This document shows positions 49,350 through 57,080 of a DNA stretch of 64,000 nt, piece after piece (the stretch's first letter is position 1; each line of letters starts with the position of its first letter). The DNA comes from Candidatus Altiarchaeota archaeon (GTDB taxonomy: Archaea; Altiarchaeota; Altiarchaeia; IMC4; SCGC-AAA252-I15), in contig JBDRLL010000003.1 in the NCBI GenBank assembly GCA_043813075.1, positions 125,811 to 189,810 of the forward strand, written 5' to 3'. A program made the translations under genes and the position numbers. The notes under the pieces are model-generated. The model made no database searches. It was not told where the DNA came from and worked only from the letters and a program-made list of their open reading frames with translations.

Positions 49350-50249
49350 ATGAGTAATCTTGACCTTTTAGTTTTTGGGGATACTGCCATAGACAACTTC
49401 TATGAAGTCGGTAAACTGCCCTCCCTTAATGAGGCTAGCGACGTCTCCAAAAGCCATAGATTCTACGGTGGAATGGGCGCCAACACCGCGGTGGTGGCCA
49501 GGACCCTTGGGCTTGAAGTGGGGTTGGTAAGCGTTATCGGAACTGACGCGGAAGACTACAGGAAGTATATGGAAGGTATGGGCATCAAGCTGCTGTTGAA
49601 GGGAGTCTTCGGAGACACAACAAAAAGCATGTTCTTCAAGGAGAACGGAAATCAGATAAGCTTCTTCTACAAGGGCGTCACAGAGATGCTAGACAACCTG
49701 GATCCTGAGGAAGAATTTGGCAAAAGGTTGAACCGTAAGACAAAGGCAGTGTACATGGCAAGGACATACCTTGAGATGCAGAGGAAGGTCGTTAAGATGT
49801 ATAAGGACAGTTTCACAGTCTACAATCCAGGGTATGGTGTGTTCAAGTTCGACAGGATACCGCGCCTGTTCAAGGCCATCGTAAGGGAGTCTGACGTGCT
49901 TGTGTTAAACCACCACGAGCTGGAGCACTTGAATAAACTGGGCTTCAAGGTAAGGATGGGCGTTAAACCAAGGGTATTCATAGTGACGCGGGGTGAGAAG
50001 GGGTGTAGGGTTCACACAAAAAACACGTCAATAGACGTTAACCCCTACAAGACCAAGGTGGTAGACACGTCAGGAGCGGGCGACGCATTCAACGCAGGAT
50101 TCCTTGCAGGAATGATAAAAGGACACGACGTCTACCAGTCAGTCGCAATAGGGAATGCTGCCGCCTCATTCATAGTGGAAGCATGGGGATGCCAGACCAA
50201 CATCCCAAAATGGCCGCAAGTCATTGAGAGGTACGATAAGATAAGATGA
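49350..50249 (+). CDS. PfkB-family carbohydrate/nucleoside kinase
   Basis: DTSGAGDAFNAGFLAG and an N-terminal GDTAIDNF. Confidence 0.8.
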   Translation: MSNLDLLVFGDTAIDNFYEVGKLPSLNEASDVSKSHRFYGGMGANTAVVARTLGLEVGLVSVIGTDAEDYRKYMEGMGIKLLLKGVFGDTTKSMFFKENGNQISFFYKGVTEMLDNLDPEEEFGKRLNRKTKAVYMARTYLEMQRKVVKMYKDSFTVYNPGYGVFKFDRIPRLFKAIVRESDVLVLNHHELEHLNKLGFKVRMGVKPRVFIVTRGEKGCRVHTKNTSIDVNPYKTKVVDTSGAGDAFNAGFLAGMIKGHDVYQSVAIGNAAASFIVEAWGCQTNIPKWPQVIERYDKIR

Positions 50250-51244
50250 AGAACGCTGATAAATGGTATGCGATAGACGCGCTGGGGGAGTCCTTTGACA
50301 GGACTAGGAAGCTGCTGTTCGAACCATTTGACATAGGTTTCTGGGCTAAGCTGGCGCTGATAGCATTCATAGCTGGGATGGCGAGCAACGGCAACTCCCA
50401 ATTCAACTTTGACGGTTCAGGGGGCGGATTCCAGAACATGCCAGACCCTGCAATAATCATCACGCTGGCAGTGATGATAATAGCGTTCGTAATAGCCCTC
50501 ATGTACCTGTCTTCAGTAGCCAGCTTCGCGTTCATACAATCCCTGTCAGAAGGCAAGGTAGAGGTTATAAGATACTTCAAGGATAACAAGTGGCTTGGCC
50601 TCAGACTATTCGTACTGCAGGTAGCCATGATTTCAACCATCATACTGTTGACCATACTGTTTATCACCGGCCTCGTGTTCAAGGGATTCGGAAACATGGG
50701 GGGGGCTGACGTCATAGCAATAATAATCATGGTGCTGGTGATATTCGCCATGATCTTCGCATTCATGCTCTTCATGCTGTGGGTGAACGACCTGGTCGTA
50801 CCCATAATGTATGCGAGAAACTGCGGGGTAATAGAGGGTTTCTCACAGTCAATCAGTATAGCCCGTGCCGAGGCCATGCAATTCCTAGTCTACATCCTGG
50901 CTAGGGTCGGGCTTGGCTTTATGGTGGCCATCATAACGCTGTTCATCAGCATACCATTCATGATAATAATGTTTTTCTTCGCAATCAGCGGCGTGATACT
51001 ACAGGCCCTTTCAACACCACTGGCACTGGCATTCATGATCGTGGTCATAATGGTGACGGTGATGGTTTCATACATAATCACGTTAATAACACTGCCTTTG
51101 AGCGTTTACGTCAGGTGCTACAACCTGTTCTTCCTGCAGCACACGAGAGGGGGGCTCAAATTCTTCGGCAGTAAGGGTGCTGGAAACGCGGCTGCCACCG
51201 CGGAAAAGCTTATAAACAATGAAGACGAGATAAAAGTGTATTAA
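50246..51244 (+). CDS. Polytopic membrane protein, unknown family
   Basis: Six to seven TM helices. It shares an ATGA overlap with the pfkB-like gene, and argC starts 2 nt after its stop. Confidence 0.5.
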   Translation: MKNADKWYAIDALGESFDRTRKLLFEPFDIGFWAKLALIAFIAGMASNGNSQFNFDGSGGGFQNMPDPAIIITLAVMIIAFVIALMYLSSVASFAFIQSLSEGKVEVIRYFKDNKWLGLRLFVLQVAMISTIILLTILFITGLVFKGFGNMGGADVIAIIIMVLVIFAMIFAFMLFMLWVNDLVVPIMYARNCGVIEGFSQSISIARAEAMQFLVYILARVGLGFMVAIITLFISIPFMIIMFFFAISGVILQALSTPLALAFMIVVIMVTVMVSYIITLITLPLSVYVRCYNLFFLQHTRGGLKFFGSKGAGNAAATAEKLINNEDEIKVY

Positions 51245-51246
51245 AG

Positions 51247-52218
51247 ATGAAGGCGATTATCGTAGGAGCGTCAGGATATACGGGAAGAGAATTGTTGAGG
51301 ATACTGTCACAACACCAGGAAGTAGAGTCTCTCGCCGCAACTTCACGAAGCCATAAAGGCAAGCACGTGTCAGAGGTTCATAAAAGCCTTTCAGGAGTGG
51401 TGGACTTGAAGTTCACAAACTTTGAGTTGGAAGGCCTTGACGCAGACCTGGCTTTCCTCGCAGTACCCCACACTGAGGCGATGAAATACGCGGAAGGCAT
51501 CCTGGAGAAGGGCATTAGGATTGTGGACTTGAGCGCCGACTTCCGCCTTAAAGACGAGGAAGCGTATGAAAAGCATTATAAGGTAGAGCACTCATGCCCC
51601 GAGTTGATTCGGGAGGCCGTCTACGGGCTCCCAGAGTATTATAGGAAGGATATCCGAGGCGCACGCCTGGTAGCTAACCCAGGCTGCTACCCCACAGGAG
51701 CGATACTAGCCTGCAAGCCGCTTGCCGACGGCTTTACGGTGGACGATATCATAATCGACAGCAAGAGCGGTGTTTCAGGCGCAGGAGTTAAGAAGGAGGA
51801 TGCTATGATGAAGTTCGTGTCTGACGAGAACCTGAAGGCTTATAGGCTGACAGACCACCAGCATACTCCAGAGATAATCCAGGAGCTCGGGCGAAACGTA
51901 TTCTTCACCCCACACATAGCCCCACTGAACCAGGGGATATACACAACAGTGCACGCGCTGACTGACGCGGACGCTGGTGAAGTCATCGAAGCCTACATGA
52001 GGAAGTACGGGGTTGAGCCATTTGTGGAAGTCGTTGACGAGACAGACGTCCTTAGCGTGCGAAACACCAACAAATGCACTATAGGTGGATTCAAGTCCGA
52101 TGGAAAGAGAATGGTGATAACATCAGCGATAGACAACCTGATAAAAGGAGCTAGCGGCCAAGCAGTCCAAAACATGAACATAATGATGAGATACGAGGAG
52201 ACGACAGGACTAGTGTAG
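51247..52218 (+). CDS. argC: N-acetyl-gamma-glutamyl-phosphate reductase (ArgC/LysY family)
   Basis: GASGYTGRELLRIL and the catalytic NPGCYPT. Confidence 0.85.
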   Translation: MKAIIVGASGYTGRELLRILSQHQEVESLAATSRSHKGKHVSEVHKSLSGVVDLKFTNFELEGLDADLAFLAVPHTEAMKYAEGILEKGIRIVDLSADFRLKDEEAYEKHYKVEHSCPELIREAVYGLPEYYRKDIRGARLVANPGCYPTGAILACKPLADGFTVDDIIIDSKSGVSGAGVKKEDAMMKFVSDENLKAYRLTDHQHTPEIIQELGRNVFFTPHIAPLNQGIYTTVHALTDADAGEVIEAYMRKYGVEPFVEVVDETDVLSVRNTNKCTIGGFKSDGKRMVITSAIDNLIKGASGQAVQNMNIMMRYEETTGLV

Positions 52219-52293: not shown

Positions 52294-55161
52294 TCACCTT
52301 TTGCCTTTTTTCTCCAGGTTAGTCTCCACTTCTATGATTTTTTTCTGGTAGTCAGTCATCAACTCGTGATACATCTCCTCAGACAGCTCGCGCTTATGAT
52401 ACTTCTCCTTTGCCTTGTTTATCATCCTCATTAAATCCGACCTCTTCCCCAGAAGCATGCTTAGTTCAGAGACGACTGGCCCCCCATCATCGCCGCCTTG
52501 ATTCGTTTTCAGGAAATTATTTATGTCATCCCACAATTTGGAGTATAACTCACGCTCCCCGCTGTCCATCAGCTGGCTCCGAGCCTGAAGGAACCAGGGT
52601 ATTATCGAAGACTTCCTGTTGGACAAGACAGACACGAAATCATCCATGCCAACAGGCCTTTTCAATCCAGACTCCATTGACTCCTTCCAGGGTATCTCCG
52701 ACGCCTCGTCGCAAATCACTTTTATGTCCGCAGATGAGAAGCCGGCCGTCATCTCTGCAAGCATCACGAAATCGATTTCATCTGACACTGGTTTGCCCTT
52801 AGAGTGCAGTTTGAATATATCCACCCTACTCTCCATGTCTGGGGAGGGGATGTATATCTGGTCGCTGAACCTGCCAGCACGCCTCAATGCAGGGTCGATA
52901 TCCCAAGGAGCGTTAGTCGCACCCAGTATCATGACTCCCTTCCTCTTCTCGAACCCATCCATCTCAGTCAGCAGCTGATTCACAAGCCTCCTCTCAGCAC
53001 CCTTCTGGCTCACACTCCTCTTGCTTGCCACCGCATCAATCTCGTCGAAGAATATTATCGAAGGGGTGTTTCTAGCCGCCCGCTCGAAGATTGAGTGGAG
53101 CCGCTTCTCGGTAACACCCTCCTCATGGGACATCAAGTCGGTTATCTTCACATTGAAGAAAGAGGACTCGCATTCGCCAGCACTGGCACGGGCGAGATAT
53201 GTCTTACCGCAGCCCGGCGGCCCGTATAGGAGTATTGCGCCGCCAACCTCCCTGCCGTACTCTTTGGACAGTTCCGGATTCTTAAGGGGGTAGACTACCT
53301 TGACCTTGATTTCTTCTTTTACGTCTGATAGCCCGCCAACGTCAGAGAAGTTAAGTGAAGGTTTTATGGACTGATTTATCCCACCAGCCCTTTTAAGAAC
53401 GTATTCCGCGAGTTCAGGATACACGTCTTCCTCGCCGCTGTCGCGAATCTGCTTTTCAGCCACACGCAACCAGGGTATTATTGTGGACTCCCTCTGGTCT
53501 ATGACCATGCGGAAATCACGGAGAGTGATCTTGCGTTTCGCACCCCCGTGAATCGTCTCACCCCAAGGTATCTGAGACGACTCATCGCATATCGCAGTGA
53601 TGTCTGCTGAAGAATATCCTTCAGTGATACGGGCTAACTCCCCGAAGTCCACGTCTTCAGACAAAGGCCTGCCCTTAGTGTGTATGTTGAACAAACCCAC
53701 CCTCGCCTCATTGTCTGGTGGCGGCACGAACACTTGAAGCGTGAACCTACCGGCCCGGCGTAAAGCAGGGTCAATATCCCATGGAGCATTCGTCGAACCG
53801 ATGACAAGCATGTTCTCGTTCGACGCATCAACACCCTCCATTTCAGCGAGGAACTGGTTGATTACTAGGCGTTCAGCACCCTGCGTACTGCCCCTGGCTC
53901 GGCCGAGAGCATCCAGCTCGTCGAAGAAGAGTATGGAAGGTACCCCATCACGCGCCTCCTGGAAGGCCTGGTGGAGTTTGCTCGCAGCCACCTCAGGATT
54001 GTCCCCCATGATGTCCTGTATGCTGAAACTGTAGAAGTTGTATCCGCACTCGCCGACCGTAGCACGGGCGATATATGTTTTACCGCAGCCCGGCGGCCCG
54101 TAGAATAGCACGCCACCACCCGCTTTCCTCCCGAATTCCTCGGACAAGTGCGGGTGGGTGAGCGGGTAGATTATCGCCTCCCGTATATGCTCTTTCAACC
54201 TGTTCATGCCGGCCACATTGGAGAAGTTAATGGCCTCAGACTCTACGGGTATTGAATCCAACCCATAGCCCTTAGTGCCGAGAGTCAGGGTCTTAACCGC
54301 CTTTTTGTTGGGATACTCCCATAGGGTGTTGGACTTTTCTATGCAGGGGAGGTATTTCACTTCAACATAGTCTTCTCCGCCAATCAGGTAAGTGCACTCG
54401 AGGAAAGGCATGTATACTATCTCCTCGACAGTAAGCTTGCATGTGAACAGCTGGGACAGGAGTATGGCTATCTTGTCTGGAGTGTGCCGTATCGGCATCT
54501 TATGGAATGAATCCTCGATGTAGTCGACTTCAAGAAGCCCTGAGGAGATGTCATAACCCTTGCTGGTAAACTTGGGTGCTGTGATCACCGGCTTGATGTA
54601 GTATATCTTGGTGATGATATCCCAGTCGGTTATCTCCCGCACAAGTGTCTTCAGGGTAGACTCGTTCTCTGTGGGGGAAAAGACGACAGCCATCTTCTTT
54701 CCGACAATCTCCCTCGCAGCATCCTGCTGGTTTATATCCAGCATGTCGAACTTCGTTGTACCGTACTCTATCAGATACCCCAGCATCTTCATCGCGGGGG
54801 GGGAGAGCTTCAAGAGTTCGACTAGTATGTTACTCTTGTTCAGAAACGTGTATTCAACATATTGCTTGTCAAAGAATTTCTTGAACTTACCCTCAACATT
54901 ATGGGCGGTCCGATAGTACAACGACAGGTCGGTCAAGTCAACATGAAGAGTATTACTTACCCCAGTCAGAATCTTTTGACCCTCAACCTCCTTGTGCTGG
55001 CTCGCCCGCATCTTAAGGACGGGAGCGTACTTACCCTCTATACGGAAGTTCTCAGACGCGCCAATCCTAGCCTGTATGCCAGCCTTTACGTCATATACAG
55101 CCTGCTGCATCACGTCACTGGCAATCGCGTAAGCCCGGGTCTGTACTTTATTGAACCTCAT
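52294..55161 (-). CDS. Tandem AAA+ ATPase (two classic-clade AAA modules) with an unrecognised N-terminal domain and a coiled-coil tail
   Basis: Each feature occurs twice: Walker A GPPGCGKT, Walker B FFDE(L/I)DA, and NAPWDIDPALRRAGRF. The first ~320 aa match nothing I know. Confidence 0.85.
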   Translation of the reverse strand: MRFNKVQTRAYAIASDVMQQAVYDVKAGIQARIGASENFRIEGKYAPVLKMRASQHKEVEGQKILTGVSNTLHVDLTDLSLYYRTAHNVEGKFKKFFDKQYVEYTFLNKSNILVELLKLSPPAMKMLGYLIEYGTTKFDMLDINQQDAAREIVGKKMAVVFSPTENESTLKTLVREITDWDIITKIYYIKPVITAPKFTSKGYDISSGLLEVDYIEDSFHKMPIRHTPDKIAILLSQLFTCKLTVEEIVYMPFLECTYLIGGEDYVEVKYLPCIEKSNTLWEYPNKKAVKTLTLGTKGYGLDSIPVESEAINFSNVAGMNRLKEHIREAIIYPLTHPHLSEEFGRKAGGGVLFYGPPGCGKTYIARATVGECGYNFYSFSIQDIMGDNPEVAASKLHQAFQEARDGVPSILFFDELDALGRARGSTQGAERLVINQFLAEMEGVDASNENMLVIGSTNAPWDIDPALRRAGRFTLQVFVPPPDNEARVGLFNIHTKGRPLSEDVDFGELARITEGYSSADITAICDESSQIPWGETIHGGAKRKITLRDFRMVIDQRESTIIPWLRVAEKQIRDSGEEDVYPELAEYVLKRAGGINQSIKPSLNFSDVGGLSDVKEEIKVKVVYPLKNPELSKEYGREVGGAILLYGPPGCGKTYLARASAGECESSFFNVKITDLMSHEEGVTEKRLHSIFERAARNTPSIIFFDEIDAVASKRSVSQKGAERRLVNQLLTEMDGFEKRKGVMILGATNAPWDIDPALRRAGRFSDQIYIPSPDMESRVDIFKLHSKGKPVSDEIDFVMLAEMTAGFSSADIKVICDEASEIPWKESMESGLKRPVGMDDFVSVLSNRKSSIIPWFLQARSQLMDSGERELYSKLWDDINNFLKTNQGGDDGGPVVSELSMLLGKRSDLMRMINKAKEKYHKRELSEEMYHELMTDYQKKIIEVETNLEKKGKR

Positions 55162-55232: not shown

Positions 55233-55721
55233 ATGGTTAACGCAAGCAAGGTCTTGATACCTTCATTGATAAGCGGTATTGCGCTGGGCCTAGTGGGCAG
55301 CATAGGGGGCACTGTAATAGGGATGATCCCGTGTATAGGCTGCGCCAACTGCCTGCTGTGTTTCCTATGGCCGATACTCTCAGGCATGCTTGGTGTTTTC
55401 CTAGTCTCGAATAAACAGCCGGTCGACAACAGGGATGGTGTATTGATAGGCGCCATGTCAGGGGCTTTCGGCGGGATTACCTCGGCAATCGTGGGTGCGA
55501 TAATATTTGCCTTAAAAACAGTATTCGGTATAGGGGCTAGCTTAGTCATGCCTGCAGCAAACATGAAGAGTAGCATGAAACAAGCAGGTCTAGCAACTTT
55601 GGTTGGCGGCCTGGTCGGAATACCCCTGATGATAGTGACCTCTTTCCTGACATTCTGCTTCTGGATCATCATGGGCGCCTTAGGCGGCATGATTGGCGTC
55701 ATGGTTTTCGGGAAGAAATAG
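55233..55721 (+). CDS. Gly-rich small membrane protein (about 4 TM)
   Basis: The hydrophobic, Gly-rich sequence is chosen over the co-extensive Pro-rich antisense ORF (55217-55702). Confidence 0.45.
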   Translation: MVNASKVLIPSLISGIALGLVGSIGGTVIGMIPCIGCANCLLCFLWPILSGMLGVFLVSNKQPVDNRDGVLIGAMSGAFGGITSAIVGAIIFALKTVFGIGASLVMPAANMKSSMKQAGLATLVGGLVGIPLMIVTSFLTFCFWIIMGALGGMIGVMVFGKK

Positions 55722-56222: not shown

Positions 56223-57020
56223 CTATTTCTTTTCAACCAGGCCTATCGAATACGCCTTTCCGCCACGGTCCAGTATGGAACACAGCAGTATGTTGAGGGC
56301 TTGATCCACGGCAAGCTGGCTGGTTCCAGTGAGCTCTAGAAAAAGGTTTCTTGAACCCTCAGTAAGCCGGGTTAGCTCGCCGTTTATTATGGGAGGGAAC
56401 GACAGGACACTGCCTTTCTTATCCACAAAAAGCGGGTATTTGCTGGCACCATCAAGAGTCCACGCATAATCCCTGCCCTTGGGATGCTCTAGGAGGATCT
56501 CCCTAAGGGAAAGCTCCTCAGTCATGTCCAATGGCACGAAACTAACGGAGTCAGGGTCAACAGCCGTATAAGTGAATGGCGGCTCAACCCGGTCCAAATC
56601 ATGGACGCCTATAGCCACCTTCACCCTGTTGCGACCGTGAGTCAGGTGAAGCTTCTCCTGTATGCTCATCAGAGACTTGACTGAATAATCATCCAGAACA
56701 ACATCCCGGACAACAGCCCCCGCACAGAACGGCCGGACGTTCTTGACAGACTTATCGACGTACAACACAACGTCGGAATCCCCTAGACGGTATTCCACGA
56801 AACCTTTCTCAACACCCAGGAAACCCTTCAAGGCCCTTGCAAATCCTTCGATGCTAAGCATGTCAGGACGGTCTGGGAAAACCTCCAACACTATCCTCCG
56901 CTCGTCAATACTCTCCAAGCCGACGCCAATCATCGGTATCCATCCTTCCAGTTCCTGCACGCTAAAATCACGGCCTAAAAGACCCACCAGGTCCTGGAAT
57001 TCATATTCAACAGAAGGCAT
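56223..57020 (-). CDS. pheT: Phenylalanyl-tRNA synthetase beta-subunit N-terminal fragment (B1 + B3/B4 domains only)
   Basis: I aligned it by eye to the archaeal PheT N-terminus. Matching segments are PDRPDMLSIEGFARALKGFLG, VKNVRPFCAGAVV, VAIGVHDLD and SFPPIINGELT. It ends after ..LDRGGKAYSI at 265 aa, whereas a typical PheT has about 550. Confidence 0.75.
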   Translation of the reverse strand: MPSVEYEFQDLVGLLGRDFSVQELEGWIPMIGVGLESIDERRIVLEVFPDRPDMLSIEGFARALKGFLGVEKGFVEYRLGDSDVVLYVDKSVKNVRPFCAGAVVRDVVLDDYSVKSLMSIQEKLHLTHGRNRVKVAIGVHDLDRVEPPFTYTAVDPDSVSFVPLDMTEELSLREILLEHPKGRDYAWTLDGASKYPLFVDKKGSVLSFPPIINGELTRLTEGSRNLFLELTGTSQLAVDQALNILLCSILDRGGKAYSIGLVEKK

Positions 57021-57080
57021 AATTGTTTTAATTAAGTGAACGAATCTAATAAATTCACATAATCTAAAAGGAGGTTTCAA

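Follow-up and report, generated by a model that had tools for sequence, protein, structure and literature searches.

The window analysed here is a stretch of 64,000 nucleotides from a Candidatus Altiarchaeota archaeon (assembly GCA_043813075.1, contig JBDRLL010000003.1, forward-strand positions 125,811 to 189,810). On its minus strand, at 52294..55161, it carries an open reading frame of 955 codons plus stop. The list of open reading frames and the translation give a product composed of an N-terminal domain, here named domain X, two AAA ATPase modules (D1 and D2) and a helical C-terminal tail; we refer to proteins of this type as X-AAA. The N-terminus of the 955-amino-acid (aa) protein agrees with those of its orthologues, M1 being invariant in the alignment. 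Classical AAA ATPases are a known kind of protein; what is new here is the fold of the N-domain, the independently evolved multi-ring architecture and the family-wide loss of the pore-loop aromatic residue. No paper on the X-AAA family was found in the literature. Mapped features of the protein are listed in Table 1.

Two PF00004 (AAA) and two AAA_lid_3 domains were detected in the protein by a Pfam scan, which was blank on residues 1-312 and on the last 108 residues. PF00004 scored 263 bits over the whole protein in two stretches, or 124.6 bits for D1 and 143.7 bits for D2, above the gathering score. Both modules belong to the classical AAA clade by this score and by the presence of Walker A, Walker B, the sensor-1 Asn and two Arg fingers. 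In the family alignment, R760 is nearly invariant, and N458/N750, R468/R472 and R761/R764 fully so. More generally, the following elements are conserved or invariant throughout the modules of the family: Walker A, the Walker B Asp-Glu pair, the sensor-1 Asn, the RRxGR Arg fingers and the DG inter-subunit motif. Each lid is followed by a three-helix extension harbouring invariant Trp residues, as seen in the alignment and in the AlphaFold2 model. D1 and D2 share 50% identity over 273 aa (E 2e-110), the post-lid helical segment included, in line with the original prediction of two complete modules related by internal duplication. The same prediction had pointed out identical DNA at the two Walker A sites, and a 23-mer was confirmed at 54080-54102 and 53204-53226, where none is expected by chance. 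It covers an invariant peptide, and we did not take it as evidence of gene conversion. Ranking PDB chains by single modules was uninformative, as whole-chain scores sum both modules of tandem proteins.

Table 1. Features mapped on the X-AAA protein, with their positions in the window.
Feature	Residues	Positions	Strand	Remarks
Domain X	1-305	54247..55161	-	New order-specific domain in three parts
AAA module D1	313-600	53362..54225	-	ATPase core, lid and three-helix extension with invariant W533 and W564; Pfam AAA (4.4e-36) and AAA_lid_3
D1 Walker A, GPPGCGKT	355-362	54076..54099	-	From alignments
D1 pore-loop 1, GDNPEVAA	386-393	53983..54006	-	N388 and P389 at the aromatic and hydrophobic positions; motif Gly gone
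D1 Walker B, ILFFDE	410-415	53917..53934	-	D414 and E415 invariant
D1 sensor 1 and second region of homology, TNAPWDIDPALRRAGRF	457-473	53743..53793	-	Carries the Arg fingers
AAA module D2	601-890	52492..53361	-	ATPase core, lid and three-helix extension with invariant W825 and W856; Pfam AAA (5.8e-42) and AAA_lid_3
D2 Walker A, GPPGCGKT	647-654	53200..53223	-	From alignments
D2 pore-loop 1, SHEEGVTE	678-685	53107..53130	-	E680 and E681 at the positions of p97 D2 W551 and F552
D2 Walker B, IIFFDE	702-707	53041..53058	-	D706 and E707 invariant
D2 sensor 1 and second region of homology, TNAPWDIDPALRRAGRF	749-765	52867..52917	-	From alignments
C-terminal tail	891-955	52297..52491	-	Low-confidence linker, then helical hairpin (896-922 and 928-954) with family motif

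The aromatic-hydrophobic-Gly motif of pore-loop 1, which touches the substrate in proteasomal ATPases, Cdc48, FtsH-type proteases and Hsp104 (PMC7226402), occurs in neither ring of the 955-aa protein. In the HMMER alignment to p97, the D2 residues SHEEG face TMWFG of p97 D2, and GDNPE of D1 falls in the same columns when Cdc48 and other AAA modules are aligned together with it. The assumed register was thereby confirmed, and the non-aromatic loops first proposed for both rings were borne out. The canonical aromatic position is free of F, W and Y in all 185 modules, which come from 99 family proteins. The loops of the outgroups are all aromatic (SKW[VL]GESE in the AAA proteins of ~385 aa, SKWYGETD in those of ~295 aa and DMY[VA]GNTE in the TPR-AAA proteins), where the family has GDxPE and SPEEG.

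The two types of loop vary in different ways. D1-type loops are variable throughout, with a mean entropy of 2.19 bits versus 1.26 for all aligned columns. The scaffold of the loop is strongly conserved in D2 and in the third module (D3) that some relatives carry (Ser 0.69, Gly 0.21 and last Glu 0.15 bits), with both paddle columns ranking among the most variable (1.92 and 2.80 bits). Of 90 D2/D3 modules, 63 have Glu or Asp in place of the aromatic residue, the median loop charge being -3. This pattern points to a relaxed constraint on the gripping residues, biased towards acidic residues in D2, and to continued selection for ATP hydrolysis.

Domain X was modelled by AlphaFold2 from an alignment of 44 N-terminal regions, with a mean predicted local distance difference test (pLDDT) score of 90.9 and a predicted template-modelling score (pTM) of 0.86. 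Part A (residues 1-110) is a basic alpha+beta unit with a long helix and a long beta-hairpin (median charge +7). The middle part (111-185) is helical, winged-helix-sized and acidic (median charge -4, isoelectric point (pI) 5.0), and part C (186-305) is a second alpha+beta unit, again with a helix and a long hairpin. Foldseek found no solved structure at E<0.1 in a PDB library containing many p97 structures (template-modelling (TM) scores about 0.1) and nothing significant among viral structure models, and the sequence profile had no PDB match. The N-domain had been described as unlike Cdc48-N, MIT or PAN, and it indeed has no Pfam, PDB fold or PDB profile match. A canonical double-psi-barrel Cdc48-N domain, the check proposed at the time, was seen neither in the Foldseek search nor as CDC48_N or CDC48_2 among the Pfam families shown. 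An N-domain of the Cdc48-N, MIT or PAN type was rejected on the Pfam, PDB fold, PDB profile and viral fold searches.

Some weaker resemblances were seen within domain X. A few unannotated phage proteins of ~70 aa superpose on the middle part (TM 0.62-0.69, E about 0.6). Its secondary-structure order and the pattern L..L...G....L....L...GL are compatible with a winged helix-turn-helix, for which these weak phage superpositions are the only structural counterpart. A DNA-reading winged helix is disfavoured, the part being acidic. An internal duplication within domain X was also rejected, since hhalign gave a probability <1% and only the Y-x-P hairpin starts align. Taken as modelled, domain X is an autonomous, confidently folded module that is reused in other architectures.

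The C-terminal tail had been predicted to be a coiled coil, and its helical nature was upheld: the full-length AlphaFold2 model (pLDDT 81.5, pTM 0.57) folds it as a hairpin of two helices of ~27 residues each. The motif K+Y..(G)E(I/L).E..Y..L..DY(E/Q)KK(L/I)IE(L/V)E is common to the one-, two- and three-module forms of the family. SHOCT (PF09851) matched the tails of three of nine relatives over the full profile length, all below threshold (best E 0.002, 18.2 bits versus 27), and had no match to the tail of the window protein. In two family members, P0064 (L007, 8001-11390) and P0059, an extra C-terminal DUF835 domain follows the helical tail.

X-AAA proteins occur in three sizes: ~950 aa with two Walker A motifs, ~1,210-1,270 aa with three, spaced ~292 residues apart, and ~600-670 aa with one. 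The N-terminal region and the tail are common to all three. The named full-length homologues are almost all labelled Altiarchaeota. Domain X was found in 48 of 49 genomes of the order to which the window belongs, at one to six copies each, and in none of 12 genomes from sister orders of the same class. When the domain X profile was run exhaustively with HMMER against 1.84 billion representative proteins, 123 were returned, those with names being likewise Altiarchaeales. The family of X-AAA(1-3)-tail proteins is thus near-universal in, and confined to, one order, Altiarchaeales by the names of its homologues. Beyond the AAA proteins, domain X is found alone (~260-300 aa), behind a Mrr_cat domain (~390-480 aa) and in Mrr_cat-X-PAP2 membrane proteins (~580-680 aa). 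A role specific to hami was rejected, as the family is order-wide and hami are limited to the stream-adapted Alti-1 (PMC4975002). RNA runs with the gene were not found, and it was seen only in DNA metagenomes from biofilm and groundwater.

Genes for domain X proteins lie side by side at a second locus of the window genome (L027 on contig C18, 2064-4326), where the genes for an X-only protein of 277 aa and a Mrr_cat-X protein of 478 aa overlap by 8 nt. The pair is flanked by genes for acetolactate synthase and a UPF0020-type methyltransferase. Judged by eye, the 478-aa protein has a degenerate-looking nuclease motif (…VIRASQS… versus …LIEVKRNK… in a relative). In another contig the same slot holds two Mrr_cat-X genes, and in a genome of the same family (L028, G048 contig C73, 3007-6032) it holds a Mrr_cat-X gene (383 aa) followed by a one-module X-AAA gene (647 aa). 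The latter protein is divergent, with a long branch in the module tree.

The origin of the tandem was addressed with a tree of 86 AAA modules, built by a quick IQ-TREE maximum-likelihood search (LG+G4) with Shimodaira-Hasegawa-like approximate likelihood ratio test (SH-aLRT) supports and midpoint rooting, and holding no PAN, FtsH or Vps4 references. Cdc48 D1 and D2 are split from everything else at 100% SH-aLRT. Family D1 modules form one group with those of the one-module paralogues (97%), and family D2 and D3 modules form another (95%). The D1 group, the D2/D3 group and the TPR-AAA modules come together at 97%, with the single-module archaeal AAA proteins of ~295 and ~385 aa just outside. 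Because Cdc48 D1 and D2 split off in this way, the type II architecture was evidently invented anew in the tandem, which does not derive from Cdc48; a Cdc48-type origin, which the resemblance first noted might have implied, did not hold. On this tree the tandem arose by duplication in an archaeal single-module AAA lineage, independently of Cdc48/p97. At three distinct points of the tree, D3 modules cluster with D2 modules of the same sub-lineage, which implies no fewer than three origins of the third module.

Other AAA proteins of the window genome (1.8 Mb, 89% complete) include a canonical 721-aa Cdc48 with the pore loops KFYG and MWVG, a small degenerate AAA protein and a 524-aa TPR-AAA protein (L002, contig C17, 1012-2586) with a NAPWDID...RRAGRF signature and an intact DMYAG pore loop. 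No PAN or CdvC exceeded the NCBIfam cut-offs in this 89%-complete assembly, Cdc48 being the only canonical unfoldase found. Elsewhere, the TPR protein P0033 (1,303 aa, three AAA modules) has lost the aromatic residue in D1 only (GSDPGETE).

In the window genome the X-AAA gene is monocistronic. It converges with argC (51247-52218, +) and diverges, across a spacer of 71 bp, from a gene (55233-55721, +) for a Gly-rich membrane protein of 162 aa without Pfam match. The predicted arrangement was therefore borne out for this genome only, as in relatives a one-module paralogue follows downstream. At L006 (8001-12781), for example, the two-module gene overlaps by 4 bp a one-module X-AAA gene (638 aa) whose module is D1-type. 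This overlap suggests that mixed rings or assemblies exist in some species; a paralogue of this type is absent from the window genome. The order of a split PheT N-half, small membrane proteins, the AAA gene, argC, DUF7544, PfkB and an amino-acid kinase gene is retained where the orthologues are only ~40% identical.

In two distant genomes, homologues of the divergent Gly-rich membrane protein (150-162 aa, 27-29% identity) are likewise encoded divergently at this place. The gene at 56223-57080 (-) encodes the N-terminal half of the phenylalanyl-tRNA synthetase beta subunit (B3_4 domain) as a stand-alone protein of 285 aa, and is near the AAA locus in distant relatives too; this is the split pheT that is a reported hallmark of Altiarchaeales (PMC4975002). 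Finally, a DUF7544 multi-pass membrane protein of 332 aa is encoded at 50246-51244 (+), between a PfkB-family kinase gene and argC, and its gene holds the same position in one distant relative.

We consider it somewhat likelier right than wrong that the X-AAA protein acts as a remodeller, specific to the order, with two ATP-hydrolysing rings, and takes hold of its target via domain X and not by canonical threading. The protein would form a p97-like double-ring hexamer and hydrolyse ATP in both rings, and the polypeptide would be neither gripped nor threaded by aromatic paddles. Domain X would bind a substrate or partner, and nucleotide-driven ring motions passed on to it would make the protein a segregase or remodeller; the tail hairpin may aid oligomerisation or docking. 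The best candidates for the target would be other X-domain proteins (Mrr_cat-X, Mrr_cat-X-PAP2 and X-only), themselves near-universal in this order, or else a complex close to the membrane. The canonical Cdc48 of the same genome, with its KFYG and MWVG loops, already supplies ordinary unfoldase activity. A fuller version, in which a hexameric ATP-hydrolysing AAA motor has abandoned threading altogether and acts through X as an adaptor on a network of X-domain partners, possibly at the membrane, seems unlikely to hold in all its parts.

Several points weigh against a non-threading remodeller. The pTM of the AlphaFold2 monomer is low for the full-length protein, which makes the placement of the domains uncertain, and we infer the oligomeric state, the ATPase activity and the substrate all from sequence and models. 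F, Y or W occurs at the next, second position of the loop in 14 of 185 modules. Pore-loop 2 keeps Arg/Lys and could still touch the substrate, and the acidic bias of D2 could mean a preference for basic substrates and not a loss of function. Eukaryotic p97 D1 also has no aromatics, yet p97 threads through D2; loss in one ring is thus not decisive, although here both rings are concerned. Finally, the genes next to the X-AAA gene are weak evidence for a functional link because synteny is broadly conserved across the order.

The acidic loops may also be read the other way, as those of a charge-selective threading translocase whose Glu-rich D2 (and D3) loops take the Lys/Arg-rich tails or linkers of a specific substrate. 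There are parallels for such selectivity: in spastin and katanin the pore loops are basic and bind the acidic tails of tubulin, and the pores of the ATAD2 family do likewise with histone tails. The conserved Ser/Gly/Glu scaffold, the predominance of acidic residues at the aromatic position and the negative loop charge in D2/D3 all fit this reading, as do the intact hydrolysis motifs and the identity of SPEEGVTE in 15 modules whose host proteins are only about 50% identical overall. However, the two paddle columns are among the most variable and also contain K, V, A and T, the D1 loops are without any conserved pattern, and a candidate basic substrate was not found. We judge selective threading to be unlikely. 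Ordinary unfolding by a divergent Cdc48/VAT paralogue, possibly feeding the proteasome, is very unlikely. It would account for p97/Cdc48 being the best PDB sequence and fold matches and for the labels "VCP-like ATPase" or "transitional endoplasmic reticulum ATPase" given to some homologues in the sources, and the genome appears to be without PAN. But the protein reaches only 425.7 bits against the CDC48 (TIGR01243) cut-off of 802.65, has no Cdc48 N-domain and no aromatic pore loop in either ring, and is separated from Cdc48 D1/D2 at 100% in the tree. Moreover, the C-termini of the family are variable, without a conserved penultimate Tyr (HbYX-type) motif, and a canonical Cdc48 is already present.

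The reuse of domain X raises a further explanation, in which it is a homotypic adaptor joining the AAA ATPase to X-bearing effectors (the Mrr_cat nuclease fold, the PAP2 phosphatase) and assembling or activating them, in an NTPase-centred logic of conflict or defence. X is fused to an NTPase, a restriction-endonuclease-fold domain and a membrane phosphatase, and also stands alone; its genes come in tandem or overlapping pairs, one genome having Mrr_cat-X directly before X-AAA, and the X-AAA and Mrr_cat-X lineages are both near-universal in the order. This same near-universality, where a patchy distribution would be looked for, counts against defence, as does the position of both loci in conserved housekeeping synteny and not in variable islands. 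PADLOC gave generic AAA-core and Mrr similarity only and nothing for X, the Mrr_cat motif is apparently degenerate in some members (by eye only), and the acidic, winged-helix-sized middle of X is no obvious DNA reader. We hold the effector-activating adaptor to be quite unlikely. A known defence system was rejected as well, on the same PADLOC matches.

Work on classical AAA proteins rests on hand-over-hand threading, in which aromatic pore-loop residues grip the substrate. The X-AAA family is conserved order-wide and its ATPase residues are constrained, but no member, whether with one, two or three rings, retains the paddles that the closest relatives still have; the family is thus a natural experiment that may show how a classical AAA ring works when paddles are missing. 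It also points to an independent origin of the two-ring architecture, with the three-ring form arising repeatedly, and brings to light a new domain of ~300 aa that is confidently folded, has no structural relative found and is reused with nuclease-fold and phosphatase domains. The Altiarchaeales are abundant, uncultivated carbon fixers of the subsurface, and the family would mark a core, lineage-defining function in them. If threading has indeed been abandoned in favour of a network of X-domain partners, this would be a self-contained, lineage-specific remodelling system without counterpart elsewhere.

Among known systems, Cdc48/VAT/p97 share with the X-AAA protein two stacked classical AAA modules behind a large N-domain, together with Walker A/B, sensor 1, Arg fingers and lid, and p97/Cdc48 protomers superpose with the D1-D2 cassette (Foldseek E down to 2e-49, about 32% identity). 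Besides the TIGR01243 score already given, the differences lie in the N-domain, which in Cdc48 is a double-psi barrel plus beta-clam (PF02359, PF02933) and here has another fold, and in the aromatic pore loop, which Cdc48 always keeps in D2 and X-AAA lacks in both rings. X-AAA also adds a three-helix extension with invariant Trp to each lid and a hairpin tail, and does not end in an HbYX-type C-terminus. In the tree, both modules have their nearest relatives in the TPR-AAA proteins and the AAA proteins of ~295 and ~385 aa (about 47-52% identity to D2), which share the NAPW.(I/V/L)DPALRR.GRF signature and a post-lid helical extension with "IPW". They differ in having one module, a TPR, weak MIT-like or no N-terminus and an aromatic loop, without domain X or the tail motif.

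The Vps4/CdvC/katanin group has in common with X-AAA the N.PW..D.A.RR flavour and a helix after the lid, the CdvC model aligning to near its own C-terminal end. In contrast to this group, X-AAA keeps the non-meiotic G-R in the Arg-finger region (RRAGRF), has two modules and no aromatic loop, and scores 359 bits against 650 for CdvC (NF041006). Per module, the NCBIfam scores were 199 (CDC48), 186 (FtsH), 162 (PAN) and 159 bits (CdvC, 158.8) for D1 and 226, 224, 214 and 197 bits (CdvC, 197.2) for D2, and no MIT or Vps4_C Pfam match was obtained at E<=0.1 in the protein. As CdvC is the lowest of the four models for each module and Vps4_C is missing, meiotic-clade membership was rejected, and the proposed resemblance to Vps4/katanin is not supported. 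PAN (TIGR01242; 374 bits versus 500) is a single-module protein with a coiled-coil and OB N-domain. The anti-phage ATPase IetA/IteA is also distinct: the NCBIfam IteA model gave 183 bits versus 510, PADLOC IetA matches cover the AAA core only, and a partner protease gene adjoins IetA, whereas the neighbours of X-AAA are housekeeping or membrane genes.

Rings without pore aromatics are also known from D2 of NSF and D1 of Pex1/Pex6. Metazoan p97 D1 is similarly an AAA ring without an aromatic paddle, serving assembly or regulation instead of grip (PMC7226402). In all of these enzymes, however, the partner ring keeps canonical loops and threads, whereas the X-AAA proteins lack such loops in every ring and keep all of the residues for hydrolysis.

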